Positions 24,732 through 41,584 of a stretch of 64,000 nucleotides of DNA are shown here, piece after piece. The stretch is from an uncultured Rikenellaceae bacterium (GTDB taxonomy: Bacteria > Bacteroidota > Bacteroidia > Bacteroidales > VadinHA17). The notes under the pieces were generated by a model. That model made no database searches and was not told the DNA's origin. It saw only the letters and a list, made by a program, of their open reading frames with translations. The stretch is taken from assembly GCA_964429295.1 (NCBI GenBank), contig CAYSBL010000001.1, positions 178,528 through 242,527 on the forward strand. Direction: 5' to 3'. Each line of letters begins with the position of its first letter. Within the stretch, counting starts at the first letter, position 1. Position numbers and translations under genes: made by a program.

Positions 24732-26078
24732 TTATAGCAGAACCCAGGGACTCCGGTATTCATAATGGAGTCTTTTGGTTGCCTCGCCGTCGGCATCATC
24801 AATAAACGTTTCGGTTGCCGGATCCCACTTTATTGTCCTTTTAAGATCGCAGGCAATATTACCGAGAGTGCAGACCGTACAACTGCTGTGGCCGATATCA
24901 ACCGATGCAACGGGATCCTGACGCGACCTGACGCATTCAATGAAATTGACCTGGTGCGGTATCCTTGTCTCATAAGGACCTTCTTCAGCAGCTGCTGCTG
25001 TAGCCGGAGGATTGAATTTCGGGTCGGATGCATTAAAGTAACCTCTTGCGACTTCTATCCATCCGTTCTCTCCCCAGAATTTTACTCCCTTTGTAAGCTT
25101 TTCATCAAATGGCTCAGATGTCATAACAACTCCATTCGCATACTTGTAGGAAATAAACTCCGTCCCGTCACCAATCGGTGAGATCTCAACAGGTCCGTTC
25201 TTATCCATTCCAAGACCCCATTGCGCAATGTCGAACATGTGAGCTCCCCAGTCGGTGGTGAATCCGCCGCCCATCTCCTTGTACCAGCGCCATGCACCCC
25301 AGATTTCCTCATTCTTTTCAGGGTCGAGTGAAATGGGAGGATTGAGCTGGTTGTTGAAATGAATTGTTGCCGGAAGAGGACCAAGCCACAAATCCCAGTT
25401 CAGATCAGCGGGTATCGGCTCCTCGGGAAGATCATAGGGCTTTGGAGGAGCACCTACATATGCATTGACTTTCGAGATCTTGCCAAGAGCTCCTGTCTGA
25501 ACAAGATTAACCGCATGCTGGAATCCAGCATCTGAACGTTGCTGGCTTCCCACCGCAAGTACCCTGTTGTACTGCCTGACTGCCTTCTTCAACTCCTGAC
25601 CTTCCTTTATGGTAAGAGTCATGGGCTTCTCAAGATAAACATCCTTGCCTGCTCTGCAGGCAGCAATCGCTATCATGGCATGATTGTGGTCTGGAACGGC
25701 AATAACTACCGCATCTATGTCCTCCCTCGAGAGAACATCCTGGTATTTTTCGTAGGTGTCAACTTTGAACTCCTTGCCGGCTCCTGTGTAAAAATCGGTT
25801 ACCCTTTTCTCAAAACGCTTGCGTTTAATGCCATAAACATCGCATCCTGCAACCACTTTTACGCCCGGAACCTGCAAAAAGCCGCTAAGCAGAAACATAG
25901 CCTGCTGTCCGAGCCCGATAAATCCGAGAGTGATTTCATCGCCGCCCTCAACGGCGACAGCTTTTTTCTTTCCCTTACAGGATGTTGACAAAGCCGGTAT
26001 CACTGCAATCCCAGCCATCCCGATAGCTGCAGAACCCAGGAACCGTCGCCTGGTCCATAATTTACTTTGTTCCTTCAT
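24732..26078 (-). CDS. Gfo/Idh/MocA-family NAD(P)-dependent oxidoreductase with a twin-arginine lipoprotein-type signal
   Basis: TAT motif TRRRFLGSAAIGMAGIAV followed by LSTSC. Rossmann segment LGFIGLGQQA. The EKP motif (YLEKPM) is typical of the family. Confidence 0.8.
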   Translation of the reverse strand: MKEQSKLWTRRRFLGSAAIGMAGIAVIPALSTSCKGKKKAVAVEGGDEITLGFIGLGQQAMFLLSGFLQVPGVKVVAGCDVYGIKRKRFEKRVTDFYTGAGKEFKVDTYEKYQDVLSREDIDAVVIAVPDHNHAMIAIAACRAGKDVYLEKPMTLTIKEGQELKKAVRQYNRVLAVGSQQRSDAGFQHAVNLVQTGALGKISKVNAYVGAPPKPYDLPEEPIPADLNWDLWLGPLPATIHFNNQLNPPISLDPEKNEEIWGAWRWYKEMGGGFTTDWGAHMFDIAQWGLGMDKNGPVEISPIGDGTEFISYKYANGVVMTSEPFDEKLTKGVKFWGENGWIEVARGYFNASDPKFNPPATAAAAEEGPYETRIPHQVNFIECVRSRQDPVASVDIGHSSCTVCTLGNIACDLKRTIKWDPATETFIDDADGEATKRLHYEYRSPWVLL

Positions 26079-26195: not shown

Positions 26196-26912
26196 TCAGA
26201 ATCTTCCAAAAACAGAATATTTCCCCGTGTTGCAAAATATAGATGAATAAAGAAACAAACCTTCCATGCTTGTCACCATCCGCCGCTCAAGATGAAGAAC
26301 AGGCTGACCTGCCTCAAGCTTAAGAAACCTCCTTATCCTTGATGATGGCGAAATTGCACGTATCCTCTGTTCCCCCCCTTTTATCTCAACCTTGTAACGC
26401 TCCCTGAGTACCTCAAAAAGCGACCTGTTTTCAAACTGCCTGGCCGTAATGCGTGGCAGATTAATATTTGCTATATAGCTTATGTCATAAAATATAGGAG
26501 CCTCATCCAGCAGCCTCAGCCTCTCCATGTATATGCAACCCGACTCCCTCTCCAGTCCGGTCAGGGGAAACATGAATTCTCCGGGCCATGGCTTCAATAC
26601 TGGTTTTACAATGATCCGTGTCTTAAGATTCCTGTTTCCCACAGCCGTGGTGGTTCCCGACACCGATAATATCCCTATATCCCTCGGCGGAAGCTGGACA
26701 ATACTACCCTTCCCCTGATGCTTCCGTATGTAACCGTCGTTTGCCAGACTTGCCAGCGACTGCCTTACTGTCGGACGAGTCATCCCGTATATCCTGCATA
26801 ACTCGTTCTCCGATGGCAAAAGATCACCCTCAGCATAAACACCCTCAGCAATGTGCCGGCGAAGTATCCCGTACAGCTTCCTGTGCTGCGGTATGGAACT
26901 GCCCGAAATCAT
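26196..26912 (-). CDS. GntR-family transcriptional regulator, HutC subfamily (winged HTH plus UTRA domain)
   Basis: N-terminal HTH LPSENELCRIYGMTRPTVRQSLASLANDGYIRKHQGKGSIV and a ~150-aa UTRA-like C-terminal domain. It is divergent from the E2-E1 operon. Confidence 0.85.
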   Translation of the reverse strand: MISGSSIPQHRKLYGILRRHIAEGVYAEGDLLPSENELCRIYGMTRPTVRQSLASLANDGYIRKHQGKGSIVQLPPRDIGILSVSGTTTAVGNRNLKTRIIVKPVLKPWPGEFMFPLTGLERESGCIYMERLRLLDEAPIFYDISYIANINLPRITARQFENRSLFEVLRERYKVEIKGGEQRIRAISPSSRIRRFLKLEAGQPVLHLERRMVTSMEGLFLYSSIFCNTGKYSVFGRF

Positions 26913-26945
26913 TAACAGATTTTTTTTGTAAATATAATATTATCT

Positions 26946-26961
26946 ACTTGTAAATACAAGT
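26946..26961. promoter_or_regulatory. Candidate GntR/HutC operator: perfect palindrome ACTTGT-AAAT-ACAAGT
   Basis: 6-4-6 perfect inverted repeat in the divergent gntR/E2 intergenic region, immediately upstream of a TAnnTTTG box. The same half-sites recur at 27006-27011 and 27040-27045. Confidence 0.5.
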
Positions 26962-26969
26962 TTAATTTC

Positions 26970-26977
26970 TATTTTTG
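26970..26977 (+). promoter_or_regulatory. Candidate -7 promoter box (TATTTTTG) for the E2-E1 operon
   Basis: TAnnTTTG match 143 nt upstream of the E2 ATG, flanked by the ACTTGT/ACAAGT repeats. Confidence 0.3.
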
Positions 26978-27005
26978 TAACAACATTAAAATAAAGACTT
27001 TTAAA

Positions 27006-27045
27006 ACTTGTTCTTTTAGAGATTGTTCAACTTATTTTAACAAGT
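27006..27045. promoter_or_regulatory. Second pair of ACTTGT / ACAAGT half-sites (28-nt spacer), a possible auxiliary operator
   Basis: ACTTGT lies at 27006-27011 and ACAAGT at 27040-27045, the same hexamers as the palindrome at 26946-26961. Confidence 0.3.
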
Positions 27046-27119
27046 ACCCGAGGTCTTGAGTCTGCAGTCACATGCAGCAGACAGGACATGATAAGCAACA
27101 TTAAATCTTCATAACCCAG

Positions 27120-28397
27120 ATGGCAAGTGCAGTAATAATGCCCAGGCAGGGTCAATCGGTAGAGACCTGCATAATAACAAAATGGTTCAGGAGAAAGGGC
27201 GAAACGGTCAAGACAGGCGACATCCTTTTCTCCTATGAAACCGACAAGGCCGCATTCGATGTGGAGTCTCCGGCCGACGGAACTATTCTGGAAATCCTTT
27301 ATGACGAAGGTGCCGAAGTCCCGGTACTGGTCAACGTGGCTTTCATCGGTGAACCGGGAGAAGCATCTGAACGTTCAGGCCAGCCAGCTCCTGAAGAACC
27401 GGTAACGGCTTCAGTCATTCAACCCGGAGAAGTGGCGGCTCCTGCTCCTTCCGGAACATTGGCGGCTGAATCAGCCGTTATTCACGACAGCCGGCTCAGG
27501 ATATCCCCAAGGGCAAGAAGGTTTGCCGAAAAGAACAGGTTCGACTACAGAACGGTAAGCGGGTCGGGCCCAAACGGAAGAATAATGTGCGGCGACATCC
27601 AGAAAGCCATTTCAGAAAAATCCCCGGTATCGGACACAGCTCCGGCGGAAGCTCCGGCTGCCCCTCCCATTGCACCACCGGCTGAAACATCAATCTCACC
27701 AGAAGAATTCACCGAAAAGCCTCTTTCAAATGTCAGAAAGCTGATAGCCAAAGCAATGTATTCATCACTTCGCGATTCCGCCCAGCTCACCCATCACATG
27801 AGCGCCGATGTCCGGAATGTGCTTGAAGCAAGAAGAAAAATCAAGGAAGGTATAAAAAACGGAACCGGACACCACGACATCACAATTAACGACATCATCT
27901 GCTACTGCGTGATAAGGGCCCTGGCAAAACACCCCGGGATAAACGCCCACTTGCTCGGCGATTCCCTTAGAGTGTTCAACAGGGTAAACCTTGGGATAGC
28001 CGTCGACACTCCAAGAGGACTTATGGTACCTGCCATAAAAAATGCCGACCTTATGGATCTCACTCAGCTCTCCGGAGCACTGAAGACCGCGGCCGAGGCA
28101 TGCAGAAAGGGAAACATCAGCACTGAGCTGATCCAGAGCACTTCAGCTTCATTCACTGTTTCTAATCTTGGAAATTACGGAGTTGAAATGTTCACACCTG
28201 TCATAAACCTTCCGCAGTGCGCAATACTGGGAGTCTGTACAATAATAAACCGGCCGGCTGACCTGGGAAACAATACCTTCGGATTTGTTCCGTATTTAGG
28301 CCTTTCCCTGACCTACGACCACAGGGCTGTTGATGGCGGTCCGGCTACCTTGTTCCTCAGGGAAATAAAAGAACAGATTGAACAATTCAGCTATTAA
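27120..28397 (+). CDS. 2-oxoacid dehydrogenase complex E2 component (dihydrolipoamide acyltransferase)
   Basis: Lipoyl domain with [12 protein letters not shown], an Ala/Pro-rich linker, a peripheral-subunit-binding domain ([29 protein letters not shown]), and a catalytic domain with DHRAVDG. Confidence 0.9.
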
Positions 28398-28432
28398 CGA
28401 ATCAACAACAATATTCTGTAAAACACTATAAC

Positions 28433-30901
28433 ATGCCAAAAAGTCAGTATATCAGTCCGGAAGAAGTACGCAGACCCCGGTTCATCGAATTCGGCAAGAT
28501 CCCGGTAAACCAGTACAGCAGATCGATTGAAGAGGAAAAGCAGCATTTCAGCACTGGGGATTTTCTCAGAATCTACCACGACATGGTCATAATAAGGGAA
28601 TTTGAGACTATGCTTAATCTTATCAAGACCACTAATGAATACAGGGGAATCCCTTATAATCATCCTGGACCCGCACATCTTTCAATCGGCCAGGAGGCAG
28701 CTGCAGTCGGAATGGCTTATAACCTCGGCATCGATGATTATATTTTCGGCTCCCACAGGAGCCATGGAGAAATACTTGCAAAAGGTCTTTCTGCCATAGC
28801 AAGGCTCAGCGAAGATGAACTTTATACAATAATGAAGAATTACTTCGGAGGGAAGACTCTGAAAGTGGTGGAAAAAGATTTTACAGGCTCCGTCAGTGAG
28901 CTCGCCAGACGCTTTCTGCTGTACGGAGCACTGGCAGAAATTTTCGCCCGGGAAAACGGTTTCAATAAAGGACTGGGCGGGTCGATGCATGCTTTCTTCA
29001 CTCCGTTTGGCATTTATCCGAATAATGCAATAGTGGGCGGCTCAGGAGACATTTCCGTGGGCGCAGCCCTTTACAAGAAGATCAACCGGAAACCCGGACT
29101 GGTGGTCTGCAACATCGGAGATGCATCGATGGGCTGCGGACCTGTCTGGGAGGGTATCGCTTTCGCAACAATGGATCAGTACAGGACACTCTGGGAAGGC
29201 GAATTCAACGGAGGTCTGCCTCTTATCTTCAACTTCATGAACAACCTCTACGGCATGGGAGGTCAGACCATGGGCGAAACAATGGGATACGGAATACTGG
29301 CCAGGATCGGAGCCGGAGTAAATCCCGAGATGATGCATGCCGAAAGGGTCGACGGATACAACCCTCTGGCTGTGATCGACGCATTCAGAAGAAAAATGGA
29401 AGTCATCCGGCAGAAAAAAGGACCGGTTCTCCTCGATACCCTTACCTACAGGATAAGCGGCCACTCCCCTTCCGACGCTTCATCATACAGGTCGAAAGAA
29501 GAAATTGAAGCCTGGCAGAAGGAAGATTCAATAATTGCCTATGGTCAGAAACTTACTGAAGCAGGAATTGCCTCTCCTTTGCAGCTCGACGAGATAAGGG
29601 AAGATGCATCGGAACTGATGACTCACATTCTCCGGCTTGCAGTGAATGACGATATCTCTCCAAGGCTTGACCTTGATTCAAATCCCGACGAAATTGGAAA
29701 AATGATGTTTTCCAACCAGTCGGTCGACAGAATGTCGGAAGGGACTCCTGAGGTCCTTCTTCCCATGGAGGAAAATCCAAGGGTAAAATCCCTGAAGGCA
29801 AAGGAAAGATTCTACCTCGACAGTGAAGGGAAACCTGTGTCAAAGGCAAGAACCTATCAGCTTCGCGACGGATTATTCGAAGCTATTATTGACCGTTTCT
29901 ACAAGGACCCCACCCTTGCAGCATGGGGCGAGGAAAACCGCGACTGGGGAGGTGCATTCGCAGTATACCGCGGCCTTACTGAGGCACTTCCTTATAACCG
30001 CCTTTTCAATTCTCCCATTTCCGAAGGCGCAATAGTTGGCACTGCAATCGGATACGGTATGTGCGGAGGAAGAGTGATAGCGGAAATTATGTATTGCGAT
30101 TTTCTTGGAAGAGCTGGAGATGAAGTCTTCAACCAGCTTCCGAAATGGCAGGCAATGAGCGGAAATCTCATAAAAATGCCTGTGGTTATAAGAGTTTCAG
30201 TTGGTTCAAAATACGGAGCACAACATTCTCAGGACTGGTCCTCTCTTGTTGCCCATATCCCCGGGCTTAAAGTGATCTTCCCGGCAACACCTTACGATGC
30301 AAAGGGACTTATGAACAGTGCCCTCCAGGGAACCGATCCGGTGATATTCTTTGAAAGCCAGAGAATCTACGACATTGGAGAAATGTTCCATACCGGCGGT
30401 GTGCCGGAGGGCTATTACGCTTTACCCCTTGGAGTTCCTGACATAAAGAAAACCGGAAGCGACATTACTATCCTTACTATAGGCGCCACACTTTACCCGG
30501 CTGTGAAAGCCGCCGAAATCCTCGAAAAGAATTACGGTATGAGCGCTGAAATAATAGATGCCAGAACCCTGGTTCCTTTCAATTATGAGCCGGTACTGGA
30601 ATCTGTCAGGAAAACCGGCAGGATTGTCCTGGCAAGCGATGCATCATCCAGGGGTTCGTTCCTGAAGGAGATGGCCCAGACAATCACAGAGCTCGCATTT
30701 GATGACCTCGACGCACCTCCTGTTGTAGTAGGCGCACGCAACTGGATAATCCCGGCTCATGAGATGGAGAATTATTTCTTTCCCCAGCCTTCGTGGATCG
30801 TGGATGCAATTCATGAGAAAATAGTTCCCCTGAAAGGACATGTAAGCTCAACAGACCTTTCAGTGCAAAAGACTTTGCACCTTAACAGGGAGGGGGTGTA
30901 A
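28433..30901 (+). CDS. Fused E1 alpha-beta component of a 2-oxoacid (pyruvate/acetoin/branched-chain type) dehydrogenase
   Basis: 822 aa. The N-terminal half has the TPP-binding motif [17 protein letters not shown]...[12 protein letters not shown] linker of roughly 80-100 aa follows. The C-terminal half is E1-beta/transketolase-like ([26 protein letters not shown]). Confidence 0.85.
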
Positions 30902-30911
30902 GAGCTTTTTA

Positions 30912-30919
30912 TATCTTTG
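30912..30919 (+). promoter_or_regulatory. Candidate internal -7 promoter box (TATCTTTG) ahead of the HAD gene
   Basis: TAnnTTTG match 24 nt upstream of the ATG at 30943, in the 41-nt E1/HAD spacer. Confidence 0.35.
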
Positions 30920-30942
30920 CGTAACACATCATTTTATAAATA

Positions 30943-31728
30943 ATGGAAAATGTCATCGGGAAGATAAAAGCCAAATCAGGGTTTATCATAGACATGGATG
31001 GGGTAATCTACCATGGGAACAAACTTCTTCCGGGTATTCCTGAATTCCTTAAATGGCTTGAATCATCCGGCAAGAAATTTCTGTTTCTTACCAATTCCAG
31101 TGAACGTTCGCCCAAGGAACTGCATGAAAAACTCCTGAGACTTGGCATAGATGTCGGAGAGGAACACTTCTACACCAGCGCCCTGGCTACAGCCGGTTTT
31201 CTCGCCAGTCAGAAACCAAATGGAAGCGCTTTCATCATTGGCGACGCCGGACTGATACACGCTCTTTACAGTTTTGGTTACACCATAAACAATGTAAACC
31301 CCGACTATGTGGTTGTCGGAGATACCCATAACTATAACTTTGAGAGTATCCAGACAGCCGTCAACCTGGTTCTCAGGGGAGCCAGGCTGATTGGTGCAAA
31401 TCCGGACGTCAGCGGACCTGTGGAAAACGGCATAGCTCCGTCTACCAAGGCTCTTATTGCACCTATAGAGATTGCAACAGGGAAAAAAGCCTATTTCGTT
31501 GGCAAGCCAAACCCCCTGATGATGAGAATTGCACTTAAAAAACTCATGATCAGCAGAGAAGATGCCATAGTTATTGGCGACAGAATGGATACCGATGTCA
31601 GATGCGGGCTTGAATCGGAAATCGATACTCTTCTGGTGCTCAGCGGAATAACATCAAGGGAGGAAGTTGATAATTTCCCTTACAGACCACAGTATATTTT
31701 GAACGGAATTATCGACCTGGTACAATAA
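30943..31728 (+). CDS. HAD-IIA (NagD-like) sugar-phosphate phosphatase family protein
   Basis: Motif I is IIDMDGVIY, motif II is FLTNSS, and motif IV is GDRMDTD. 261 aa. Confidence 0.8.
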   Translation: MENVIGKIKAKSGFIIDMDGVIYHGNKLLPGIPEFLKWLESSGKKFLFLTNSSERSPKELHEKLLRLGIDVGEEHFYTSALATAGFLASQKPNGSAFIIGDAGLIHALYSFGYTINNVNPDYVVVGDTHNYNFESIQTAVNLVLRGARLIGANPDVSGPVENGIAPSTKALIAPIEIATGKKAYFVGKPNPLMMRIALKKLMISREDAIVIGDRMDTDVRCGLESEIDTLLVLSGITSREEVDNFPYRPQYILNGIIDLVQ

Positions 31729-31735
31729 ACATTAT

Positions 31736-32377
31736 ATGGAAAAGGATTCCCTTTACCGGAACGAACGCAAAGAGGTTGCACGGTTCATGCGACGACTATA
31801 CAGGCAGGGCCTTACAACCACTTCGGGAGGGAACATCAGCTTAAAGATCAACCCTGATCTGCTTGCAATCACTCCTTCTGCTACTGACAAGGGAAGAATG
31901 AAATGGGAGGAAATCGGACTTATGACAATGGATGGGAAAAACCTGACTCCCAGCCTCAAGCCCTCTATTGAGCATGAGATGCACCTCTCAATCTACAGGA
32001 AAAAGAAAGAAATAACTGCCATTGTCCATGCACATCCTTTGTTTGCCTCTGCATTCACTGCCATGAAGGCTGCAATAGACACTAACCTGACTGCAGAGGC
32101 AAGAGCGGTGTGCGGAGAACCTTACCTTGTCCGCTATGCTCTGATGGGATCCGGAAAACTGGCATCCCTGGCCAGCGAAGGAATTCTGATATCAGAAATC
32201 CTGCTGCTTGAGAACCATGGAGTGCTTACAGCCGGCAATTCCATTCTGCAGGCTTTCGACAGGCTTGAAGTACTCGAAAACGCAGCCAGGATGACCTGGA
32301 TCGTTAATATTGCCGGAAATAAGAAATCTCTCGGGAAAGCAAGCATCAGGGAACTCGACAGGCTTTTCAGGCGGTAA
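31736..32377 (+). CDS. Class II aldolase/adducin-family protein (fuculose-P aldolase / ribulose-5-P epimerase / decarboxylase fold)
   Basis: 213 aa with TSGGNIS, metal-binding His contexts (IEHEMH, VHAHP) and LLENHGVLTAG. Confidence 0.75.
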   Translation: MEKDSLYRNERKEVARFMRRLYRQGLTTTSGGNISLKINPDLLAITPSATDKGRMKWEEIGLMTMDGKNLTPSLKPSIEHEMHLSIYRKKKEITAIVHAHPLFASAFTAMKAAIDTNLTAEARAVCGEPYLVRYALMGSGKLASLASEGILISEILLLENHGVLTAGNSILQAFDRLEVLENAARMTWIVNIAGNKKSLGKASIRELDRLFRR

Positions 32378-32400
32378 ATGTTCATAAACCGCCTGCTGTA

Positions 32401-33675
32401 TTGTTTTTTTGCTATAATAAACATATATCTGGTAAAGTGGTGAAATATTTTCTGGTCGACTATCCGGCCCCGGAAGAAATTCGGAAAAAGCTCTCAAATA
32501 ACCATCTTCCGCAATTCAGAGAGGCTAATGCGCATATCCATACTCCATACTCCTTCAGCTCCTTCCCCGACATGGAGACGATATTCTCAATGGCAAGAAG
32601 CGAAAGTATTGCCGTCCTGGGGATCAACGATTTCTATGTCGCCGACGGATTCAGCGAATTCATCAGCGGATCGCTCCGAAACAGGGTGTTCCCTCTCTTT
32701 AATATTGAATTCATGGGACTTCTGAAAGAGGAACAAAAAAAAGGTATCAGGATCAACGATCCAAATAATCCAGGAAGAATCTATTTCTGCGGAAAGGGAT
32801 TTGATTTTCCCTTCAACCCGGGATTCCTCAACAGGATGAAGCTGAAATCAGTTGTCAGGGAAAGCCAGAAGCAGATGAAGTCCATGATATCAAAGCTTAA
32901 CGGCATTACAGAACCTGTAAATCCTGCACTGACTCTTTCATATGATAATATTAAAGCCCGGCATGCACGCGACATGGTTCGTGAACGACACCTTGCCAAG
33001 GCTCTGCGAACCCTGGTAACGGAAAACTATCCCGACACGGTTGACCAGGCAACTATTCTCGAAAAGATTTACGGAGGGAAAAAATCAAGCGCCGATCCTG
33101 CCAATCCTGCCCTTCTTGAAAATGAAATACGCTCAAACCTTCTTAAAAGCGGAGGTGCTGCTTTCGTAAGAGAGGATGAGGATTCTTTCCTGGAACTTCC
33201 TTCAATTATGAAGATAATCCTCAAGGCAGGCGGTATACCTTGCTACCCTGTATTGCTCGATGATTCTGCGGGAAACTATACCGAATTTGAAAAAGACTGG
33301 GAAAAACTGTACAAATCATTGACAGACAAAAAGATTGCCTGCATCGAACTCATTCCGGGAAGAAACAGCCTGTCAGCCCTGAACGATTTTGTTCACTTCT
33401 TCCATGAAAAAAACTTTATTGTGACCTTCGGTACCGAACACAATACTCCGGATCTTTTGCCTCTTTCTGTGGCCGCAAAAGGAAAGGAGCAGCTTGGCAA
33501 CGATCTCAAGCAGATTGCGTGGGATGGGGTTTGCATCATCGCCGCGCATCAGTATCTCAGGGCTAAGGGAATGCAGGGCTATGTCCTGCCCGACGGGAAG
33601 CCGAGTTTCGACCAGAAAAGGGAACTTGCTTATCTCGGGAAACTTGTAATTGAATTTTTCCTCTCAAAAAACTGA
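32401..33675 (+). CDS. Hypothetical protein with a split PHP-like (polymerase/histidinol-phosphatase fold) signature
   Basis: N-terminal ANAHIHTPYSFSSF...LGINDFY and C-terminal TFGTEHNTP resemble PHP metal-binding motifs separated by a long insert. There is no in-frame ATG before residue ~57. The start is probably the GTG at 32437 or 32440 (VVKYFLVDY). Confidence 0.45.
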   Translation: MFFCYNKHISGKVVKYFLVDYPAPEEIRKKLSNNHLPQFREANAHIHTPYSFSSFPDMETIFSMARSESIAVLGINDFYVADGFSEFISGSLRNRVFPLFNIEFMGLLKEEQKKGIRINDPNNPGRIYFCGKGFDFPFNPGFLNRMKLKSVVRESQKQMKSMISKLNGITEPVNPALTLSYDNIKARHARDMVRERHLAKALRTLVTENYPDTVDQATILEKIYGGKKSSADPANPALLENEIRSNLLKSGGAAFVREDEDSFLELPSIMKIILKAGGIPCYPVLLDDSAGNYTEFEKDWEKLYKSLTDKKIACIELIPGRNSLSALNDFVHFFHEKNFIVTFGTEHNTPDLLPLSVAAKGKEQLGNDLKQIAWDGVCIIAAHQYLRAKGMQGYVLPDGKPSFDQKRELAYLGKLVIEFFLSKN

Positions 33676-33678
33676 TGC

Positions 33679-35652
33679 ATGAAACCGGAAATTGCTGAAC
33701 TCGTTGAAATATCAAGGTTTTACGGGAATAACAAAGAGTATGTTATCGCAGGGGGAGGAAATACTTCATTCAAAGACGAACAGACTATTTGGATCAAGGC
33801 AAGCGGACAACCCCTCTCAGCCCTGAGCGAAGAAGGGCTTGTGGCCCTTGACAGGGAAAAACTCCGCCTCATCTCGGAAAAAAAGTATTCAGAAGAATCG
33901 TCGGCCAGAGAGGAACAGGTAAAAACAGACCTTTTCGACTGCATAATAGACAAAGGCCAGAATAAAAGACCTTCTGTCGAAACTTCCCTTCACGACCTGA
34001 TCAGGTATAAATTTGTTGTCCATCTGCATCCTGCCCTTATAAACGGTATACTTTGCAGCAGAAATGCCAGAAATATTGTGATGCAGCTTTTCGGGGAAAA
34101 GGCTTTGTTTATACCCTATACTGATCCCGGTTATACACTCTTTAAGAAACTTGAATCGGAGATTGTTAAATACAGGGCTGCTTTCCAGTCTGATCCCCGG
34201 ATAATACTGCTTGAAAACCATGGATCGTTCGTAAGCGCCGATTCAACCGCTGAAGTGAAAAATATCTATGATGATATTTTATCAGCAATCACCGGACACG
34301 TGAAGGAAATCGCTGACAATGAAGAACTTCCCTTTAACCCCGTTCTTTTAAAAGCCCTGCCGGCCCTGAGGATGCTGCTTACGGAAGAAAAGCCCAGACT
34401 GATCAAATACCGCCACAACAGTCTGATAGCAAAATACTATCAGAACCAAACGGAGTTTCATAAGATTTCCCTTCCCCTGACTCCCGATATCATTGTCTAT
34501 TGTAAATCAAGATACCTTTTTATAGAGCAATCGTCAACAGCAGAAAAGATCCTTGAATCGGTAAGAACCCAGCTTCCGCGCTTTGTTAGTGAATACGGAT
34601 TCCTGCCGAAAGTCATTGTGATAAAAAACGCAGGTATTCTGGCTGTTGACGATTCCGTCGCCTCCGTAGATACCGTGCTTGACGTATATGAGGATATGAT
34701 TAAAGTCTGTTATTACTCTTCTCTCTGCGGAGGCACAAAAACCCTTACTCCCGATCAGACAGAATTCATCGACAAATGGGAGGTTGAAAACTACAGGAGA
34801 AAAGTGGCTGCAAGCGGAATCAAAAGCAGCAGAATGGATCAGAAAATTGCCATTGTGACAGGTGGAGCACAGGGATTCGGAGCAGGGATTGCTGAGGCTC
34901 TTTTTAAAATGAATGTAAACGTGGTGGTTGCCGACCTTAATGAAGAAAGCGGAAAAGCTTTCGTTGACGGGCTCAATTCCGGCGGTTATAAAAACATGGC
35001 AATTTTCATCCGGACAGATGTTTCCGATGCAGAATCCGTAAGGAACCTTGTCGAAACCACAGTCGGCGCTTTTGGGGGACTTGACCTGATGGTAAGCAAT
35101 GCAGGTGTTCTCAGAGCAGGAGGACTCGACGAAATGGATCCCGAAACTTTTGCAAAGACCACAAATATTAATTACAGCGGTTACTTCTATTGCGCAAAAT
35201 ATGCTTCAGAAATAATGAGGATCCAGAACCAGGAAAAGCCGGAGTACTTCTCCGACATTATACAGATAAATTCAAAATCAGGCCTCAGGGGAAGCAACAG
35301 AAACTTTGCATACGCAGGAACAAAATTCGGCGGAATAGGCCTCACCCAGTCTTTTGCCCTTGAACTGGCTCCCTTCAGGATAAAGGTTAATTCAATTTGC
35401 CCGGGCAACTTCTACGAGGGACCATTATGGTCCGATCCGCATAACGGGCTTTTTGTTCAATATCTTAGAACCGGGAAGGTTCCGGGCGCAAAAACCATTG
35501 AGGATGTAAAGAAGCATTACGAGGAGCAGGTTCCGCTTAAGCGTGGTTGCAGGCTCGAAGACGTGGTTAAGGCAATGCTTTACATCATTGATCAGGAATA
35601 TGAGACAGGGCAGGCAGTTCCGGTCACAGGCGGACAGGTAATGCTAAGTTAA
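33679..35652 (+). CDS. Bifunctional class II aldolase / short-chain dehydrogenase (RhaEW-type architecture)
   Basis: 657 aa. The N-terminal ~380 aa is aldolase-II-like (AGGGNTS, VVHLHP, LLENHGSF). The C-terminal ~270 aa is an SDR (VTGGAQGFGAGIA, NAG, YAGTK). Confidence 0.8.
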   Translation: MKPEIAELVEISRFYGNNKEYVIAGGGNTSFKDEQTIWIKASGQPLSALSEEGLVALDREKLRLISEKKYSEESSAREEQVKTDLFDCIIDKGQNKRPSVETSLHDLIRYKFVVHLHPALINGILCSRNARNIVMQLFGEKALFIPYTDPGYTLFKKLESEIVKYRAAFQSDPRIILLENHGSFVSADSTAEVKNIYDDILSAITGHVKEIADNEELPFNPVLLKALPALRMLLTEEKPRLIKYRHNSLIAKYYQNQTEFHKISLPLTPDIIVYCKSRYLFIEQSSTAEKILESVRTQLPRFVSEYGFLPKVIVIKNAGILAVDDSVASVDTVLDVYEDMIKVCYYSSLCGGTKTLTPDQTEFIDKWEVENYRRKVAASGIKSSRMDQKIAIVTGGAQGFGAGIAEALFKMNVNVVVADLNEESGKAFVDGLNSGGYKNMAIFIRTDVSDAESVRNLVETTVGAFGGLDLMVSNAGVLRAGGLDEMDPETFAKTTNINYSGYFYCAKYASEIMRIQNQEKPEYFSDIIQINSKSGLRGSNRNFAYAGTKFGGIGLTQSFALELAPFRIKVNSICPGNFYEGPLWSDPHNGLFVQYLRTGKVPGAKTIEDVKKHYEEQVPLKRGCRLEDVVKAMLYIIDQEYETGQAVPVTGGQVMLS

Positions 35653-35734
35653 TTTTGTCCCCAGTCATCAGGGTTTGAATCACCTGTGATGTCTTCAGGT
35701 CCCCCCGGGGAATTTAGGGGTAAAAACGAAAATC

Positions 35735-36997
35735 ATGAAAACCAAAGCAGTACGTATTTACGGAAAAAAAGACCTCAGACTCGAGGAGTTTGACCTTCCC
35801 CCGATGCAGGATGATGAAATCCTTGCGCAGGTTATCTCCGACAGTATTTGCATGTCGTCGCACAAGGCAGCTCTCCAGGGACCGGAACATAAAAGGGTAC
35901 CAGATGATATCGCAGTCAATCCCACTATGATAGGTCACGAGTTTTCTGGCGTTATCCTTGAAGTTGGAAGCAAATGGCAGCATAAATTCAGACCCGGACA
36001 AAAATTCTCAATTCAGCCTGCAATGGCCCATATGGGAACACTCGATGCTCCCGGCTACTCCTACAGGTACATCGGAGGCGACGCTACACATATCATAATT
36101 CCCGACATTGTGATGGAAGCCGACTGCCTCCTTCCCTATGACGGTGAAGCTTTTTATCCGGCATCACTTTCCGAACCTATGTCATGCATAGTAGGCGCCT
36201 TCAATGCAAGCTATCATGTTCCTCCGGGAACCTACAACCATATCATGGGAATAAAGGAAGGCGGGAACCTTGCTATACTTGCGGGTGTAGGTCCGATGGG
36301 ACTCGGAGCAATTGATTACGCCCTTCATCAGGACAAAAAGCCTGGACTGATGGTCGTTACCGACATTGACGACTCCAGGCTGGCAAGGGCTGCCTGCCTG
36401 TTTACCCCCGAAAAGGCTCTTGAGGATGGAGTTCGCCTTGTTTATGTGAATACAGCGAAAACTCCTGATCCCGTAAAACATCTGAGGGAACTGACAGCTC
36501 ACCAGGGCTTCGACGATGTTTTTGTCTTTGCCCCTGTCAGGCAGGTAGTTGAGCAGGGTGATGCGATACTCGGATTCGACGGATGCCTTAATTTCTTTGC
36601 AGGTCCTACAAATACCGAATTCAGGGCCGAACTTAACTTCTACAACGTGCATTATGCATTCACCCATCTGGTCGGAACATCTGGCGGCAACACCGACGAT
36701 ATGCGTGAATCACTCAGGCTGATGTCAGCAGGCAGGATAAATCCTGCAGTGATGATTACCCATGTCGGAGGCCTTGATGCAGTACCGGAGACTACTCTCA
36801 GCCTGCCGCAAATTCCAGGCGGAAAGAAACTGATCTATACCAACATATCGATGCCTCTTGTTTCGCTATACAAACTTGGCGAACTGGGAAAAACAGATCC
36901 TTTCTATGCCGGACTGCACCAGATTGTGGCCGCAAACGATTACATATGGAATCCTGAGGCTGAAAGATATATTCTTGAAAAAGGAAAACCGATCTGA
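35735..36997 (+). CDS. Zinc-dependent medium-chain dehydrogenase (sorbose-1-phosphate-reductase-like long MDR)
   Basis: 420 aa with GHEFSGVILEVG (catalytic Zn ligand context) and the nucleotide fold ILAGVGPMGLGAI. Confidence 0.7.
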   Translation: MKTKAVRIYGKKDLRLEEFDLPPMQDDEILAQVISDSICMSSHKAALQGPEHKRVPDDIAVNPTMIGHEFSGVILEVGSKWQHKFRPGQKFSIQPAMAHMGTLDAPGYSYRYIGGDATHIIIPDIVMEADCLLPYDGEAFYPASLSEPMSCIVGAFNASYHVPPGTYNHIMGIKEGGNLAILAGVGPMGLGAIDYALHQDKKPGLMVVTDIDDSRLARAACLFTPEKALEDGVRLVYVNTAKTPDPVKHLRELTAHQGFDDVFVFAPVRQVVEQGDAILGFDGCLNFFAGPTNTEFRAELNFYNVHYAFTHLVGTSGGNTDDMRESLRLMSAGRINPAVMITHVGGLDAVPETTLSLPQIPGGKKLIYTNISMPLVSLYKLGELGKTDPFYAGLHQIVAANDYIWNPEAERYILEKGKPI

Positions 36998-37058
36998 CCG
37001 GAATAATCCTGTCCTTCAGTATGGTTTAACATACTTATGAATCTGTCGGACCTGACTT

Positions 37059-37988
37059 CTATTCTATGTTTTTTCTGAATGCTTCAGCAAATTCCTTCGG
37101 GATATAGTTATCATAACTCATGCAGACTTCAGATGCAAAGTCAATTCCGGTATTTACAATCTCTTTCCACAGACTACCATTCACAGAGGGCAGCTGACCG
37201 GCATCAACCCTTTTGACAAACATGGCAGCCATCATGCCTGCATTGAAATTGTCGCCAGCACCAATTGTGCTCACAGGTGTTATTTTTCTGACAGGAAACT
37301 TACCGGTGAATCCTTCCGTCCTTACATAAACTCCTTCAGCATTGGCAGTGTAAACCAGGCATTTGCAATGGCCCCTCACTGACTCCCATGCTTCATCGGG
37401 AGTTGCTGCTCCGAAAATATTCAGAAAATCCTCATCCGAACCCCTTACCAGATTTGCCATCGACATATTTTCGACAATGAGAGGTTTCAGCCGGTCCAGC
37501 TCATGAAGGTGGGCACTCCTGAAATTCGGATCATATATTACCAGTGATCCGTTATTGTAAGCCTGACTGATGAATCCTTTGAATTTCTCCCTGATTTCGG
37601 CAGTGATCGAATATATCGAGCCGCAAAGTACAATATCATCTTTTCCGGCCGGAGGTAAAGCGATGTCAAGCCTTTTTGCCGGATACTTTTCATAGAAGGT
37701 GTATGCCGCATCATTCCTCTCATTCAGGAAGGCAAGTGCAAGCTTGGTCTTGCCCTCGGCATATTGATCGACATGGGATGTATCAACACCGTTTGAACGG
37801 AGGAAGGAATCGATAAGTCTGCCTACATCGTCATCTGCGTATTCACTGATGAAATGAACAGGAAGACCTGCCCTTCCCAACGATACCAGGCTGTTGAGCA
37901 TCGCTCCTCCCGGCTTTGCTGCCTGCGGCTGACCATTCTTGAAAATAATGTCGAGTACCGTCTCACCTACACCGAATATCTCACGCAT
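37059..37988 (-). CDS. PfkB-family carbohydrate kinase (fructokinase-like)
   Basis: 309 aa with the N-terminal GG motif (AKPGGAMLN), DPNFR and the C-terminal GAGDNFNAG signature. Confidence 0.8.
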   Translation of the reverse strand: MREIFGVGETVLDIIFKNGQPQAAKPGGAMLNSLVSLGRAGLPVHFISEYADDDVGRLIDSFLRSNGVDTSHVDQYAEGKTKLALAFLNERNDAAYTFYEKYPAKRLDIALPPAGKDDIVLCGSIYSITAEIREKFKGFISQAYNNGSLVIYDPNFRSAHLHELDRLKPLIVENMSMANLVRGSDEDFLNIFGAATPDEAWESVRGHCKCLVYTANAEGVYVRTEGFTGKFPVRKITPVSTIGAGDNFNAGMMAAMFVKRVDAGQLPSVNGSLWKEIVNTGIDFASEVCMSYDNYIPKEFAEAFRKNIE

Positions 37989-38092
37989 AATCTATGGTGG
38001 TTAAGCATTTACAATGAATTATTCACTTTGAGCCAGGTAGTGAATATACAAATAAAAAAACCATGTCAGATAAACATGCTCCCGTAATATTC

Positions 38093-38100
38093 TATATTTG
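38093..38100 (+). promoter_or_regulatory. Candidate -7 promoter box (TATATTTG) for the sorbitol-dehydrogenase-like gene
   Basis: TAnnTTTG match 23 nt upstream of the ATG at 38123. A 7-bp inverted repeat, ATTCACT (38021-38027) and AGTGAAT (38039-38045), lies just upstream. Confidence 0.35.
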
Positions 38101-38122
38101 AAGAAACAAATCATAGCGGAAT

Positions 38123-39157
38123 ATGAAAGCAATGATGCTCACCGGTATCCGGCAGATGGACATGCGTGAGGTCCCTGATCCGGTTCTCACCGATTCCCAT
38201 GATGTTAAGATCAGACTGCTTGTTCTTGGAATATGCGGATCGGATATCCACTATTACGTGTCAGGCAGGATAGGATCGCAGGTAGTCACTTATCCGTTTA
38301 CGGTCGGGCACGAAAGCGCCGGAGTGGTTGTTGAAACCGGACCCGCCGTCACCAGGGTGAAGGAAGGCGATATCATTGCCGTTGAACCCGCAATGTGGTG
38401 CGGAACCTGCGACCAGTGCCTGGCCGGAAGACATCATACCTGCCGGCGGCTGAAATTCCTCGGATGCCCCGGACAGGCTGAAGGTGCTCTTTCAGAATAT
38501 ATTGTCATGCCCGAAAACAGCTGCTTTCCGCTGCCTGCAAACCTGAATCCCGATCATGGTGCTATCTCCGAGCCTCTTTCAATCGGGGTTTACTCAGTGA
38601 AAAAAGCAGGAGATATAACAAATTCAGATATTGCCATCCTTGGTTATGGCCCCATAGGGATGAGTGTCATGCTGGCGGCAAAAGCAAATGGTGCAGCATC
38701 AGTAAGCGTAACTGATAAGATCGGAAGCAGGCTTGCCATTGCAGAAAAGGAAAAAGCCTCCTGGACAGGCAATCCTTTAAACAATGACATCCTAAAGGAA
38801 ATATCACATATCAGGCCTTCAGGTCTCGATGTTGTGTTTGAATGTTGCGGCCAGCAGGAAGCCGTCGATCAGGCTGTTGAAATCCTTAAACCTGGCGGAC
38901 GCCTGGTAATAGTGGGGATTCCTGAATTCGACAAGTGGACACTTGACGTCGATAAAACAAGGCGCAAGGAAATATCCATCCAGTTCATCAGGAGACAGCT
39001 GAACTGCGTTGACGATTCAATCCGCATGATGTCAGGTGGTATAATAGATGTAAGCAATATGATTACCCACCGATTCCCCTTTGAAAGGACAAAGGAGGCC
39101 TTCGATCTTGTGGACGGATATCACGACGGTGTAATGAAGGCTATGATAGATTTTTGA
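38123..39157 (+). CDS. Zn-dependent polyol dehydrogenase (sorbitol / 2,3-butanediol / threonine dehydrogenase-like MDR)
   Basis: GICGSDIHYY, GHESAGVVVETG, a structural-Zn Cys cluster (CGTCDQCLAGRHHTC) and the GYGPIG nucleotide fold. Confidence 0.85.
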   Translation: MKAMMLTGIRQMDMREVPDPVLTDSHDVKIRLLVLGICGSDIHYYVSGRIGSQVVTYPFTVGHESAGVVVETGPAVTRVKEGDIIAVEPAMWCGTCDQCLAGRHHTCRRLKFLGCPGQAEGALSEYIVMPENSCFPLPANLNPDHGAISEPLSIGVYSVKKAGDITNSDIAILGYGPIGMSVMLAAKANGAASVSVTDKIGSRLAIAEKEKASWTGNPLNNDILKEISHIRPSGLDVVFECCGQQEAVDQAVEILKPGGRLVIVGIPEFDKWTLDVDKTRRKEISIQFIRRQLNCVDDSIRMMSGGIIDVSNMITHRFPFERTKEAFDLVDGYHDGVMKAMIDF

Positions 39158-39203: not shown

Positions 39204-39217
39204 CCCCCTTTAGGGGG
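39204..39217. other. G/C hairpin CCCCC-TTTA-GGGGG between convergent genes, overlapping the GH88 stop codon
   Basis: 5-bp GC stem with a 4-nt loop, followed by a second GGGGG run. The last codons of GH88 (LPPAP-stop) are encoded by this element. There is no flanking U-run. Confidence 0.35.
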
Positions 39218-40406
39218 CAGGGGGTAACATGCCTTTGAACCTCATCATCGCTTCTATGAAATAGTAATCACCGTATGTCAGCGGTACATCAACCTCGCTG
39301 TTTCCCGGCAAATGCCCCACCCCGTGCTTCAGTATGAAATTACCATTCTCCCCTTCCCCTGCCCTGTATTCAGGTGACGAAAGGGTTCTGATCTGTTTTT
39401 CTGCAACTGCAAGATACTCTGCTGACTTTCCTGCTTCAGCATACCGGCTGAGTTCAATAAGAGCCGAAGCCATGATGGCCCCGGCCGAAGCATCTCTCTT
39501 TGCCTCCGGAATACCGGGAGCATTGAAATCCCAGTAAGGAATTCCGTCGGCCGGAAAATTCGGATGACCTATAAGGAAATCGGCAATCTTCACAGCCTGG
39601 TCAAGATATCTTTCCAGGCCTGTTTCCCTGTACATTACAGTGTATCCATACAAGCCCCAGACCTGTCCGCGCGCCCATGCCGACTCATCAGCCGCACCCT
39701 GATGCGTCTGCCTGGCCTCCACCTTTCCTGAAATCGTATCATACGAAACAACATGGTATGAGCTGTTGTCTGTCCTGAAATGGTTCTTTATGGTGGTGTC
39801 CGAATGAGTCACAGCAATCCTGTAGAAGGAGGAATCGCCTGAATGGTTGAATGCCCATAGCAGCAGTTCAAGGTTCATCATATTGTCGATAATAACCGGA
39901 CATTGCCAGCCTTGCCGGCTTCCCCACGACTGAATGCAGCCGATATTCGGTCTGAACCGGGTGCTTAGGGACCTGGCACCGGTCATAAGTACTTCATTGT
40001 AGCTCTCCTCTCCGGTCAGCCGCAATCCGTTCCCGAAACTGCAGAACAACATGAAACCCAAATCGTGAGTGCCCTTGTTGTACTTCTCATTTTCGATTCT
40101 TGCAGTCATTTCGGTTGCAGCAACCTTGAACTTCTCATCCCCGGTATATTCATACAGATACCACAAACTCCCGGGGAAAAATCCGCTTGTCCACCAACCC
40201 GGCCCGGCGGTAACAAATTCACCCTTCTCGTTCAGCGTTCTGGGCAGCTGACCGGGCTTTTCCTTCATCACATCATTCATAAGTAAATACTGCTGAGCCG
40301 AAAAGACAAGCGATTCATCAATCACTTTTCCGATTGGTTTTTCCTTTGCACACGAGTAAAGTATAACCGAAATAACCATTCCGGCAGTGATAAGTCTCAT
40401 TTTCAT
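39210..40406 (-). CDS. Glycoside hydrolase family 88 (unsaturated glucuronyl/galacturonyl hydrolase) lipoprotein
   Basis: 398 aa with a lipoprotein signal (GMVISVILYSC). It has the alpha/alpha-barrel motifs typical of GH88 (WWTSGFFPGSLWYLY, HDLGFM, GLYGY). Confidence 0.8.
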   Translation of the reverse strand: MKMRLITAGMVISVILYSCAKEKPIGKVIDESLVFSAQQYLLMNDVMKEKPGQLPRTLNEKGEFVTAGPGWWTSGFFPGSLWYLYEYTGDEKFKVAATEMTARIENEKYNKGTHDLGFMLFCSFGNGLRLTGEESYNEVLMTGARSLSTRFRPNIGCIQSWGSRQGWQCPVIIDNMMNLELLLWAFNHSGDSSFYRIAVTHSDTTIKNHFRTDNSSYHVVSYDTISGKVEARQTHQGAADESAWARGQVWGLYGYTVMYRETGLERYLDQAVKIADFLIGHPNFPADGIPYWDFNAPGIPEAKRDASAGAIMASALIELSRYAEAGKSAEYLAVAEKQIRTLSSPEYRAGEGENGNFILKHGVGHLPGNSEVDVPLTYGDYYFIEAMMRFKGMLPPAP

Positions 40407-41488: not shown

Positions 41489-41511
41489 GGCGCAAATTGT
41501 CAGGGGAAAGG

Positions 41512-41543: not shown

Positions 41544-41584
41544 GTGCAAAGATTGAGGATCAGACAGAGATAAAAAAATAATTA

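Follow-up and report, generated by a model that had tools for sequence, protein, structure and literature searches.

Two described systems lie close to the locus considered here. RhaEW is a bifunctional L-rhamnulose-1-phosphate aldolase/L-lactaldehyde dehydrogenase, encoded within the rha locus, which takes a ketose 1-phosphate to dihydroxyacetone phosphate (DHAP) and L-lactate, with some regulons reaching pyruvate (PMC3870299). QncN, QncL and QncM pass a C2 unit from a ketose phosphate via thiamine diphosphate (ThDP) and a lipoyl group to a thioester (PMC6335953). We analysed a stretch of 64,000 nucleotides (the window) from an uncultured Rikenellaceae bacterium (contig CAYSBL010000001.1), in which a string of plus-strand genes (27120-36997), divergent from a GntR-family regulator, encodes the E2 and a fused E1 of a 2-oxoacid-dehydrogenase-type complex together with phosphatase-, aldolase- and dehydrogenase-family proteins. 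The operon is well conserved and abundant and combines its enzymes in an unusual way, its putative function being read from its gene context. We give an even chance to the reading that this is a HutC/GntR-repressed catabolic operon of environmental Bacteroidota which acts on a phosphorylated polyol or (deoxy)ketose and has a dedicated E1/E2 complex. A preliminary description of positions 26196-39157 did not recognise the pathway as a described one, and our literature searches, directed at this set of genes and at complexes of the acetoin type within sugar breakdown, likewise returned nothing relevant.

Gene string and predicted operator

Family assignments of the window proteins come from Pfam and NCBIfam searches.

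24732-26078, minus strand: GFO/IDH/MocA-family oxidoreductase, 448 aa (Pfam PF01408/PF19051)
26196-26912, minus strand: HutC-subfamily GntR transcription factor, winged helix-turn-helix (HTH) plus UTRA effector domain (PF00392 + PF07702)
26946-26961, strand not applicable: candidate operator 1, perfect palindrome ACTTGTAAATACAAGT, from a motif scan of the GntR/E2 spacer
27030-27045, strand not applicable: candidate operator 2, ACTTATTTTAACAAGT, one mismatch, 84 bp downstream of operator 1
27120-28397, plus strand: E2 dihydrolipoyl acyltransferase with lipoyl, E3-binding and catalytic domains (PF00364, PF02817, PF00198)
28433-30901, plus strand: fused E1 alpha-beta ThDP enzyme, 822 aa (PF00676, E1_dh; PF02779, Transket_pyr; PF02780, Transketolase_C)
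30943-31728, plus strand: HAD-IIA (NagD/PGP-like) phosphatase (PF13344 + PF13242; TIGR01460)
31736-32377, plus strand: class II aldolase-family protein, 213 aa (PF00596, 138.5 bits)
32401-33675, plus strand: PHP-fold, COG0613-like metal-dependent phosphoesterase candidate, 424 aa as listed (structure model; no Pfam/NCBIfam match)
33679-35652, plus strand: fusion of Aldolase_II and a short-chain dehydrogenase/reductase (SDR), 657 aa (PF00596 + PF00106)
35735-36997, plus strand: long Zn-dependent medium-chain dehydrogenase/reductase (MDR) of polyol-dehydrogenase type, 420 aa (PF00107/PF08240, weak)
37059-37988, minus strand: PfkB-family sugar kinase, fructokinase-like (PF00294)
38123-39157, plus strand: second MDR, a threonine/sorbitol/IolM-like polyol dehydrogenase (PF08240 + PF00107)

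In the open reading frame (ORF) list, the coordinates of all ten genes within 26196-39157, the gene set and the spacers of 3-82 nt agree exactly with the preliminary description; from E2 to the long MDR the spacers are 35, 41, 7, 23, 3 and 82 nt. That description also put a PfkB kinase and an MDR immediately after the string, which is right as to position, and it left out the strand: the kinase gene is read from the minus strand, towards the operon and away from the second MDR gene. Its statement that no E3 (dihydrolipoyl dehydrogenase), sugar isomerase, rhamnulokinase or transporter is encoded in 26196-39157 stands. A scan of the 64-kb window that covered non-nested ORFs of 150 aa or more found no E3, which in this organism is presumably supplied in trans. 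Transporter genes lie outside the cluster (SBF at 44057-45358, EamA at 15167-16087). An Rfam scan of the whole window gave no riboswitch and no other RNA, and consensus scans for promoters and terminators gave counts near the shuffled expectation, with a consensus that does not cover Bacteroidota promoters.

The regulator, described beforehand as a divergent HutC-type protein, indeed combines a GntR winged HTH with a C-terminal UTRA domain, and its promoter region contains a palindrome that would be its operator; no NCBIfam equivalog reaches its cut-off. The spacer between the GntR and E2 genes is 207 bp long and carries the perfect palindrome and its one-mismatch copy. The paired palindrome, of the form ACTTGT-N4-ACAAGT, lies within this spacer in all 36 loci that have both genes, Cytophagales and distant orders included, and the second copy is found in 33 of the 36 at a spacing of ~72-105 bp (83-86 bp in most Bacteroidales loci). 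Outside regulator/E2 spacers the palindrome is nearly absent, with five one-mismatch hits in ~1.3 Mb. We take the pair as the predicted HutC-type operator of two divergent transcripts, GntR(-GFO) and E2-to-MDR. The GFO oxidoreductase gene adjoins the GntR gene in 21 loci. As it follows the regulator gene on the same strand, it probably comes second in the divergent transcript; its product gave a weak match only, to BT_2158-type glycoside 3-dehydrogenase and IolG.

In Cytophagales-type loci the GFO/MocA position of the window is occupied by a ~500-aa protein with no Pfam or NCBIfam match, always directly downstream of GntR (locus L044:2422-3930, minus strand; equivalents in L045, L046, L058, L064 and L065). 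Between the GFO gene of the window and an NYN/OST-HTH gene stands a small ORF of ~105 aa (24103-24420), conserved in 18 loci; at its position L062 (5726-6234) and L063 have RRM_1 and cold-shock-domain genes.

Conservation of the locus and its invariant core

Scanning a genome collection with the PHP-like protein gave 56 loci, nearly all labelled as Bacteroidota metagenome-assembled genomes (MAGs), from fens, peat, sediments, soils and digesters. When the window proteins were compared with these loci by tblastn, the order GntR(-)-E2-E1-HAD-IIA-AldII-PHP-AldSDR-long MDR-PfkB(-)-MDR2 appeared in almost every Bacteroidales locus. De novo clustering of genes over 62 loci found PHP in 62, (Ald)SDR in 60, the long MDR in 54, E1 in 51, HAD-IIA in 41, E2 in 40, PfkB in 40 (always on the opposite strand), AldII in 38, GntR in 37 and MDR2 in 35. 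Eleven loci are without E1, seven of them ending at a contig edge and four genuinely lacking the gene. The fused E1 is kept beside the PHP-like gene in 51 of the 55 loci with enough upstream sequence, which belong to Bacteroidales, Cytophagales and other Bacteroidota, and a reverse test starting from E1 homologues recovered the same cluster. Since the arrangement recurs in dozens of independent contigs, it is more than chance: the E2-to-long-MDR string is an operon-like unit, as its earlier treatment as one functional unit supposed, and not a chance juxtaposition.

Distant relatives rearrange the string. Cytophagales-type loci (L044-L046, L058, L060, L064 and L065) run from E2 and E1 through an M1PDH-like (mannitol-1-phosphate-dehydrogenase-like) enzyme and PHP to an SDR that lacks the aldolase domain, followed by the long MDR, a transketolase and a novel FGGY kinase, and in L044, L058, L060, L064 and L065 E1 and the next gene abut. 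The order in L047 and L055 is E2-E3-E1-PHP. L049 keeps E2, E1, PHP and AldSDR with an opposite-strand peptidase gene between E1 and PHP. In L055 a rhamnulokinase-like gene (TIGR02627 score 527.3, cut-off 527.95) and a stand-alone RhaE-like aldolase gene are divergent from E2; their place at the divergent promoter region fits the idea, raised in the preliminary description, that a phosphorylated deoxyketose is cleaved. Throughout these loci the invariant core is the PHP-fold protein, the (aldolase-)SDR and the 420-aa MDR. The 213-aa aldolase, HAD-IIA, PfkB and the second MDR are accessories confined to particular lineages; in their place distant loci have the M1PDH-like enzyme, transketolase and FGGY kinase. 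Metagenomic homologues of the PHP-like protein and of E1 were returned in thousands each, so that carbon flux in carbon-rich anoxic habitats may pass through the operon, which is abundant in uncultured Bacteroidota of fens, peat, sediments and digesters.

The PHP-like protein had no match in Pfam (PF02811 included) or NCBIfam, and some of its homologues carry weak or faint PF02811 matches. Its profile returned only noise against PDB sequences, which made a comparison of folds necessary. An AlphaFold2 model (pLDDT 81.6, pTM 0.84) matched the distorted (beta/alpha)7 barrel of solved PHP enzymes in a Foldseek search of the PDB (9etk, 2yb1, 3e0f and 3o0f; E 2e-11 to 5e-10, probability 1.0) and has a helical insertion of ~130 aa. 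The HxH motif is H33/H35, and E91, H185, D275/D276, H335 and H371 are also invariant, a set of candidate metal ligands. From the HxH motif and the match of the model to COG0613-type PHP phosphoesterases, the earlier label 'PHP-like' is right; going by the model, the protein is a PHP member at the level of the fold only and a phosphoesterase candidate. Its homologues are 411-413 aa long, so that translation probably begins at the GTG at 32437. Clustered at 50% identity, the family comprises 550 representatives, of which 157 reach E ≤1e-30, and most members have no Pfam match. Natural fusions among the representatives join the PHP-like protein to Aldolase_II (P0452, 842 aa) and Mannitol_dh to the PHP-like protein (P0459, 886 aa); a fusion of a PHP fragment with a DEAD helicase (P0505) was dropped as evidence, as it is probably a gene-calling or assembly artefact. 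Members of 450-515 aa with unexplained extensions also occur (P0434, P0437 and P0473).

In both class II aldolase-type domains of the cluster the motifs for phosphate binding and acid/base catalysis (GGN, S/T-G and PS-x-E) are kept, as are the three His zinc ligands. In the 213-aa protein, whose best PDB matches are FucA proteins, the phosphate/zinc-site motifs read GGNIS, PSIEHEMH, VHAH and NHG, and by these it could be an aldolase, epimerase, decarboxylase or dehydratase. In the fusion they read GGGNTS, KASG, PSVE, HLH and NHG, followed by TGGAQGFG and YAGTK, the TGxxxGxG and YxxxK of an SDR whose best PDB match is sorbitol-6-phosphate dehydrogenase (5o3z, E 4.7e-46). The RhaEW-type architecture previously ascribed to the fusion holds, as do its catalytic residues, but the TIGR02632 score of 238.7 against a cut-off of 567.75 marks it as a paralogue of RhaEW, not an orthologue, and there is no rha locus around it. 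The long MDR resembles sorbitol dehydrogenases and IolM in its N-terminal part and keeps C39, the GHE motif and the EP motif (the Cys/His-Glu/Glu zinc set), GVGPMG and an NAD-type Asp. The kinase scores 99.9 with PRK09434 (cut-off 450), and no equivalog cut-off is reached by the second MDR. Judged by their motifs, none of E2, E1, the aldolase-type domains, the SDR and the long MDR is catalytically degenerate. The locus provides a context for three poorly covered families, namely the PHP-like proteins, the 420-aa MDR, which is barely in family models, and the fused E1 clade.

The E1/E2 complex and its possible substrates

The E2 translation shows ETDKA, with the lipoyl-lysine, a peripheral-subunit-binding domain, and YDHRAVDG, with the DHRxxDG motif; it carries the 2-oxoacid_dh catalytic domain, and the PRK14875 model covers only its lipoyl/linker region. 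E1 keeps the GDAS...NN ThDP motif, the catalytic His of the alpha loop, the beta-subunit Glu in AEIMYCDF and, in GAQHSQD, the equivalent of H128-beta (position taken from PMC2663715). As far as these residues tell, E1 and E2 keep all catalytic motifs of a lipoamide-dependent complex. The E3 genes inside the clusters of L047 and L055 score 493.1 and 483.7 with TIGR01350 (cut-off 408.8), scores by which some relatives recruit a genuine E3 in cis. The H128-beta equivalent was tried as a discriminator between 2-oxoacids and acyloins and rejected, since the His is conserved and does not discriminate; no sequence feature was found that separates 2-oxoacid from acyloin/ketose specificity of E1.

The reading that the E2-E1 pair is a housekeeping pyruvate dehydrogenase (PDH) or branched-chain 2-oxoacid dehydrogenase (BCKDH), by chance beside sugar genes, is disfavoured, and we find it scarcely credible. 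It would account for the source annotation of the E1 homologues as '2-oxoisovalerate dehydrogenase E1 component', for the best family matches, which are PDH E1 alpha and beta for E1 and PDH E2 for E2, and for the unusual conservation of E1 (at least 82% identity among the top 120 matches, which give no view onto distant contexts; 80-94% in Bacteroidales and 71-75% in Cytophagales). However, E1 and E2 fall below all NCBIfam equivalog cut-offs for PDH, BCKDH and 2-oxoglutarate dehydrogenase (E1 beta 230.3 against 321, E1 alpha 180.7 against 393.85, E2 247.5 against 722), the complex has a dedicated predicted HutC operator conserved across orders, it is joined to sugar genes at the level of the operon in several orders, and it is missing at the syntenic site in L021. 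The Rhizobium orthologues lie on accessory conjugative plasmids, the essential pdhABC being chromosomal (PMC5118466). Nor do E2 and E1 sit apart from the aldolase genes in relatives, the finding that the preliminary description had named as fatal to a single pathway; across orders they stand directly upstream of PHP/SDR/MDR.

Those plasmid orthologues extend the E1 clade beyond Bacteroidota. Searched by tblastn against plasmids, the fused E1 is 52-55% identical over 97% of its length to proteins of Rhizobium (including pRL8 of strain 3841), Agrobacterium tumefaciens pAt15955 and Pleomorphomonas, other matches among those listed being at most 34% identical. All four contexts that were read continue with a 78-aa lipoyl protein and an alpha/beta hydrolase, which amounts to an AcoC-type split E2, and in three of the four a SorC/DeoR sugar regulator comes next. 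A kinase gene accompanies each E1 (fructokinase-like PfkB on pRL8, FGGY in the other three), and further neighbours are mannitol-dehydrogenase-family genes (2/4), sugar-type ABC transporters (3/4), a psicose-3-epimerase-like gene (pRL8) and lipA (once). Only E1 is common to the window and the plasmid clusters at high identity; E2 matches in its lipoyl domain alone, and PfkB is 24.6% identical.

pRL80083 and pRL80071 are stated to be responsible for L-homoserine catabolism (bioRxiv 10.1101/2021.02.09.430557, citing Vanderlinde 2014), and the homoserine-catabolism cluster adjoins a homoserine dehydrogenase gene (PMC10228743). From the placing of pRL80081, listed as a hydrolase counted among PDH-like genes (PMC5118466), and from the gene order on pRL8, we infer that pRL80083 is the fused E1 gene. 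Given 52-55% identity to plasmid genes that lie by sugar-type kinases, one of them (pRL80083) reported to be required for the catabolism of homoserine, the E1 clade is accessory and pathway-specific and the window complex is not a housekeeping one. A 4-hydroxy-2-oxo acid would be a plausible substrate class for the clade. The cultured, genetically tractable rhizobia and agrobacteria that carry homologues offer an experimental route, which may also explain the biochemistry of homoserine catabolism on pRL8. The psicose-3-epimerase-like TIM barrel, fructokinase-like kinase and sugar-type ABC transporters by the fused E1 of Rhizobium johnstonii 3841 (L067, 10830-17649) are puzzling neighbours for an amino-acid pathway.

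In the catabolic pathway that we propose, a kinase would first form a ketose or polyol phosphate (PfkB in the window, FGGY in Cytophagales, the rhamnulokinase-like protein in L055), and MDR, SDR or M1PDH-like enzymes would interconvert polyol phosphate and ketose phosphate. From a ketose 1-phosphate the aldolase domain could then release DHAP together with a hydroxy-aldehyde, to be oxidised by the SDR as in RhaEW, while the PHP and HAD enzymes may dephosphorylate an intermediate. The dedicated E1/E2(/E3) complex would convert a pathway-specific carbonyl compound to an acyl-CoA. For the E1 step we prefer oxidative decarboxylation of a hydroxylated 2-oxoacid, for example pyruvate from lactate, hydroxypyruvate or a 4-hydroxy-2-oxo acid, because of the canonical E2, the PDH-like family matches and the homoserine genetics. 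Teichoic-acid, inositol, methylglyoxal, tetronate and 5-deoxyribose substrates were considered and set aside, as they showed weak family resemblances only and had no specific support.

A serious alternative, though one that we think rather unlikely, is the oxidative cleavage of a ketose phosphate or acyloin, in which E1 would act as an 'oxidative transketolase'. It would attack an alpha-hydroxyketone at its carbonyl and release an aldose phosphate, and the glycolyl or acetyl unit would pass to lipoamide and by E2 to CoA. The substrate might be a ketose phosphate made by the polyol dehydrogenases and the kinase, or a 1-deoxyketose, in analogy to acetoin dehydrogenase and QncN/QncL. What speaks for such a cleavage is that in several alphaproteobacterial replicons the E1 clade goes with ketose-type genes and Aco-type partners, the split E2, that class B Bacteroidota loci bring a transketolase and an FGGY kinase, that the cluster has no step obviously making a 2-oxoacid, and that the QncN/L/M chemistry is a precedent (PMC6335953). 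A transaldolase/FSA-type gene follows the core in the E1-less loci L057 and L061, which is weak evidence, since a short TalC-type enzyme may be a housekeeping transaldolase and the adjacency possibly a lineage-specific coincidence. On the other side, the window E2 is canonical and of PDH/BCKDH type, E1 is best matched by PDH E1 alpha and beta, the fate of glycolyl-CoA is not evident, and no residue sets the two chemistries apart. Homoserine, the only genetic datum for the clade, would point more naturally to 4-hydroxy-2-oxobutanoate. More doubtful still is the wider claim that the fused E1 clade is a catabolic 'ketose-phosphate dehydrogenase complex', the lipoamide-dependent, CoA-acylating counterpart of transketolase and phosphoketolase, which would turn a phosphorylated ketose or 1-deoxyketose into an aldose phosphate and glycolyl- or acetyl-CoA, the PHP-like protein and the 420-aa MDR preparing its substrate. 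If true, this would be a new route from sugar carbon to acyl-CoA, one that fermenters could exploit for substrate-level phosphorylation.

Several observations weigh against the catabolic reading with a dedicated 2-oxoacid-dehydrogenase step. The cluster shows no obvious 2-hydroxyacid dehydrogenase to make a 2-oxoacid for E1, and the operon has neither a transporter nor an isomerase gene. HAD-IIA is the sole protein of the window cluster above a curated cut-off (TIGR01460 138.5, cut-off 100.15); no NCBIfam equivalog cut-off is reached, so that every enzyme specificity given here is a guess. The palindrome scan found no copy before PfkB and MDR2. The PHP-(Ald)SDR-long MDR core occurs without E1/E2 or regulator in L057, L059, L061 and L066, and L021 has the core with GntR-E2-E1 missing at the syntenic site, so that E1/E2 is a frequent but optional branch that the core does not require. 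Simple catabolism would hardly call for two to three phosphatases per operon, or for the co-directional three-gene RND efflux system (OEP, HlyD, AcrB) that lies between the E1 and HAD genes in 10-12 relatives (L015-L017, L021, L028, L033, L035, L042, L043, L051 and L054; for example L017:1560-6741). Sampling from the PHP gene is biased towards relatives, and a search for cultured Bacteroidota carriers found none; all are uncultured MAGs, and hence there is no phenotype. The single pathway formerly drawn through all the genes is thus narrowed: it is partly supported for the E2-to-MDR unit with its shared predicted operator, and not for PfkB and MDR2, which have no operator, the lineage-specific accessories or an obligatory E1/E2.

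The optional nature of E1/E2 is also what two independent co-transcribed modules with no shared intermediate would show, which we regard as improbable: a GntR-E2-E1(-E3) dehydrogenase of hydroxy-2-oxoacids, for instance 4-hydroxy-2-oxo acids derived from homoserine or sugar acids, and a HAD/aldolase/PHP/SDR/MDR module for polyol phosphates. The core stands alone in the four loci named above, E1 has unrelated partners in Alphaproteobacteria, an RND pump can separate the two halves, the operator lies solely before E2 (the scan found no copy before the PHP core of E1-less loci), and the adjoining sugar-acid module, with its MR-family dehydratase and RraA-like and KDG-kinase-like proteins, could supply 2-keto-3-deoxy acids. 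Yet the adjacency persists at PHP identities of 43-50% through several rearrangements of the second module, with zero-length or overlapping junctions, and in L055 the aldolase and kinase genes have moved to the regulator's side of the operator while the SDR gene stayed behind E1, which is hard to explain unless regulation and function are shared.

The surplus of phosphatases and the RND pump raise a further, very improbable alternative, namely a biosynthetic or fermentative polyol-forming or detoxification route in which sugar phosphates are reduced and dephosphorylated and the product is exported, E1/E2 supplying or removing an acyl or aldehyde unit. L059 and L066, in the order M1PDH-like, HAD-IIA, HAD_2, aldo-keto reductase, PHP, Ald(+)SDR, MDR, speak for it, with up to three phosphatases (HAD-IIA, HxpB-like HAD_2 and PHP), a YdjG-like aldo-keto reductase and the M1PDH-like enzyme, and with no kinase, transporter or regulator. 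The pump within the operon of the relatives would fit export; its presence among sugar genes is unusual and may point to toxicity of the substrate or product. Against such a route, the HutC-type UTRA repressor, the divergent kinases and the glycoside-hydrolase neighbours are typical of catabolism, and E1/E2 reactions are essentially irreversible oxidations.

To our knowledge, textbook carbohydrate catabolism has no lipoic-acid-dependent E1/E2 step of this kind. Should the coupling of E1/E2 to sugar breakdown be functional, the locus would place a lipoic-acid-dependent complex inside a sugar- or polyol-phosphate pathway.

The surroundings of the cluster hold further groups of genes. Downstream, at 39210-44019, lies a sugar-acid-type module of a GH88-like gene (minus strand), a 310-aa RraA-like protein, an enolase-superfamily dehydratase (galactonate/mannonate-like) and a PfkB protein like 2-keto-3-deoxygluconate (KDG) kinase (minus strand); in 17-18 loci the cluster is followed by RraA and the dehydratase, possible sources of 2-keto-3-deoxy acids. 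It is followed at 45526-49107 by a ribokinase-like PfkB protein, a nucleoside-hydrolase-like protein, whose ORF overlaps that of the kinase by ~130 nt and probably starts at a later codon, and a fusion of ADP-ribosylglycohydrolase with CE2_N, a possible salvage group for nucleosides or ADP-ribose. Adjoining genes for citrate synthase, isocitrate dehydrogenase and aconitase (49134-54243, minus strand) form a cluster of the oxidative branch of the tricarboxylic acid cycle. Upstream, at 18450-20084, is an acetolactate-synthase-like ThDP enzyme that scores below all equivalog cut-offs; its gene has the same relative position in L062 and L063, by an EamA transporter and a sulfatase. Two ORFs are without Pfam match, 7552-9261 (569 aa, beside a 1003-aa TPR protein) and 54260-55513 (417 aa).

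Comparison with described systems

The PHP-like protein shares its fold with the COG0613 PHP phosphoesterases, namely the 3',5'-bisphosphonucleotide phosphatase Cv1693 (2yb1), RNase AM/TrpH (9etk) and Bad_1165 (3e0f), with TM scores to the target of 0.64-0.70, and like them it has the N-terminal HxH and further invariant His, Asp and Glu residues. It differs in being only 11-13% identical to them, in its helical insertion and lack of a Pfam match, and in a context of sugar and not nucleotide metabolism. The Aldolase_II-SDR fusion has the architecture of RhaEW as in Bacillus subtilis YuxG and Chloroflexus aurantiacus Caur_2283 (PMC3870299), an N-terminal aldolase and a C-terminal SDR, with the zinc-, phosphate-binding and SDR catalytic motifs kept, and the relative L055 pairs a split version with a rhamnulokinase-like gene. 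In contrast to RhaEW, it is accompanied in the window by no rhamnose isomerase, mutarotase, rhamnulokinase or rhamnose transporter, its SDR is nearest to sorbitol-6-phosphate dehydrogenase, and the aldolase domain is wholly missing in the Cytophagales relatives.

The complex itself resembles the heterotetramer-type PDH and BCKDH of Gram-positives, mitochondria and Thermus in the ThDP motif, catalytic His and beta Glu of E1, in the lipoyl-Lys, E3-binding domain and DHRxxDG of E2, and in having E3 in the cluster of some relatives. Unlike these, its E1 alpha and beta are fused into one 822-aa chain that reaches no equivalog cut-off, and it stands under a HutC-type repressor in a sugar-phosphate operon. 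Acetoin dehydrogenase (AcoABCL) and QncN/QncL/QncM (PMC6335953) also pair a ThDP-dependent E1 with a lipoyl carrier, and they cleave an alpha-hydroxyketone, not a 2-oxoacid; the likeness to Aco is seen in the alphaproteobacterial orthologues of the window E1, which go with an AcoC-like lipoyl protein and an alpha/beta hydrolase. The E2 of the window is a canonical acyltransferase and not AcoC-like, for which reason the complex is not an Aco system, and neither an acyl carrier protein nor a non-ribosomal peptide synthetase, acoX or acoR accompanies it. The closest annotated homologue of E1 that we found belongs to the homoserine cluster on pRL8 of Rhizobium leguminosarum/johnstonii 3841 (54.8% identity over 97% of the length), where the gene is again beside a fructokinase-like PfkB kinase, but has a lipoyl protein, an alpha/beta hydrolase, a SorC-type regulator, a psicose-epimerase-like protein and ABC transporters as its partners in place of the PHP, SDR and long MDR proteins of the Bacteroidota operon.

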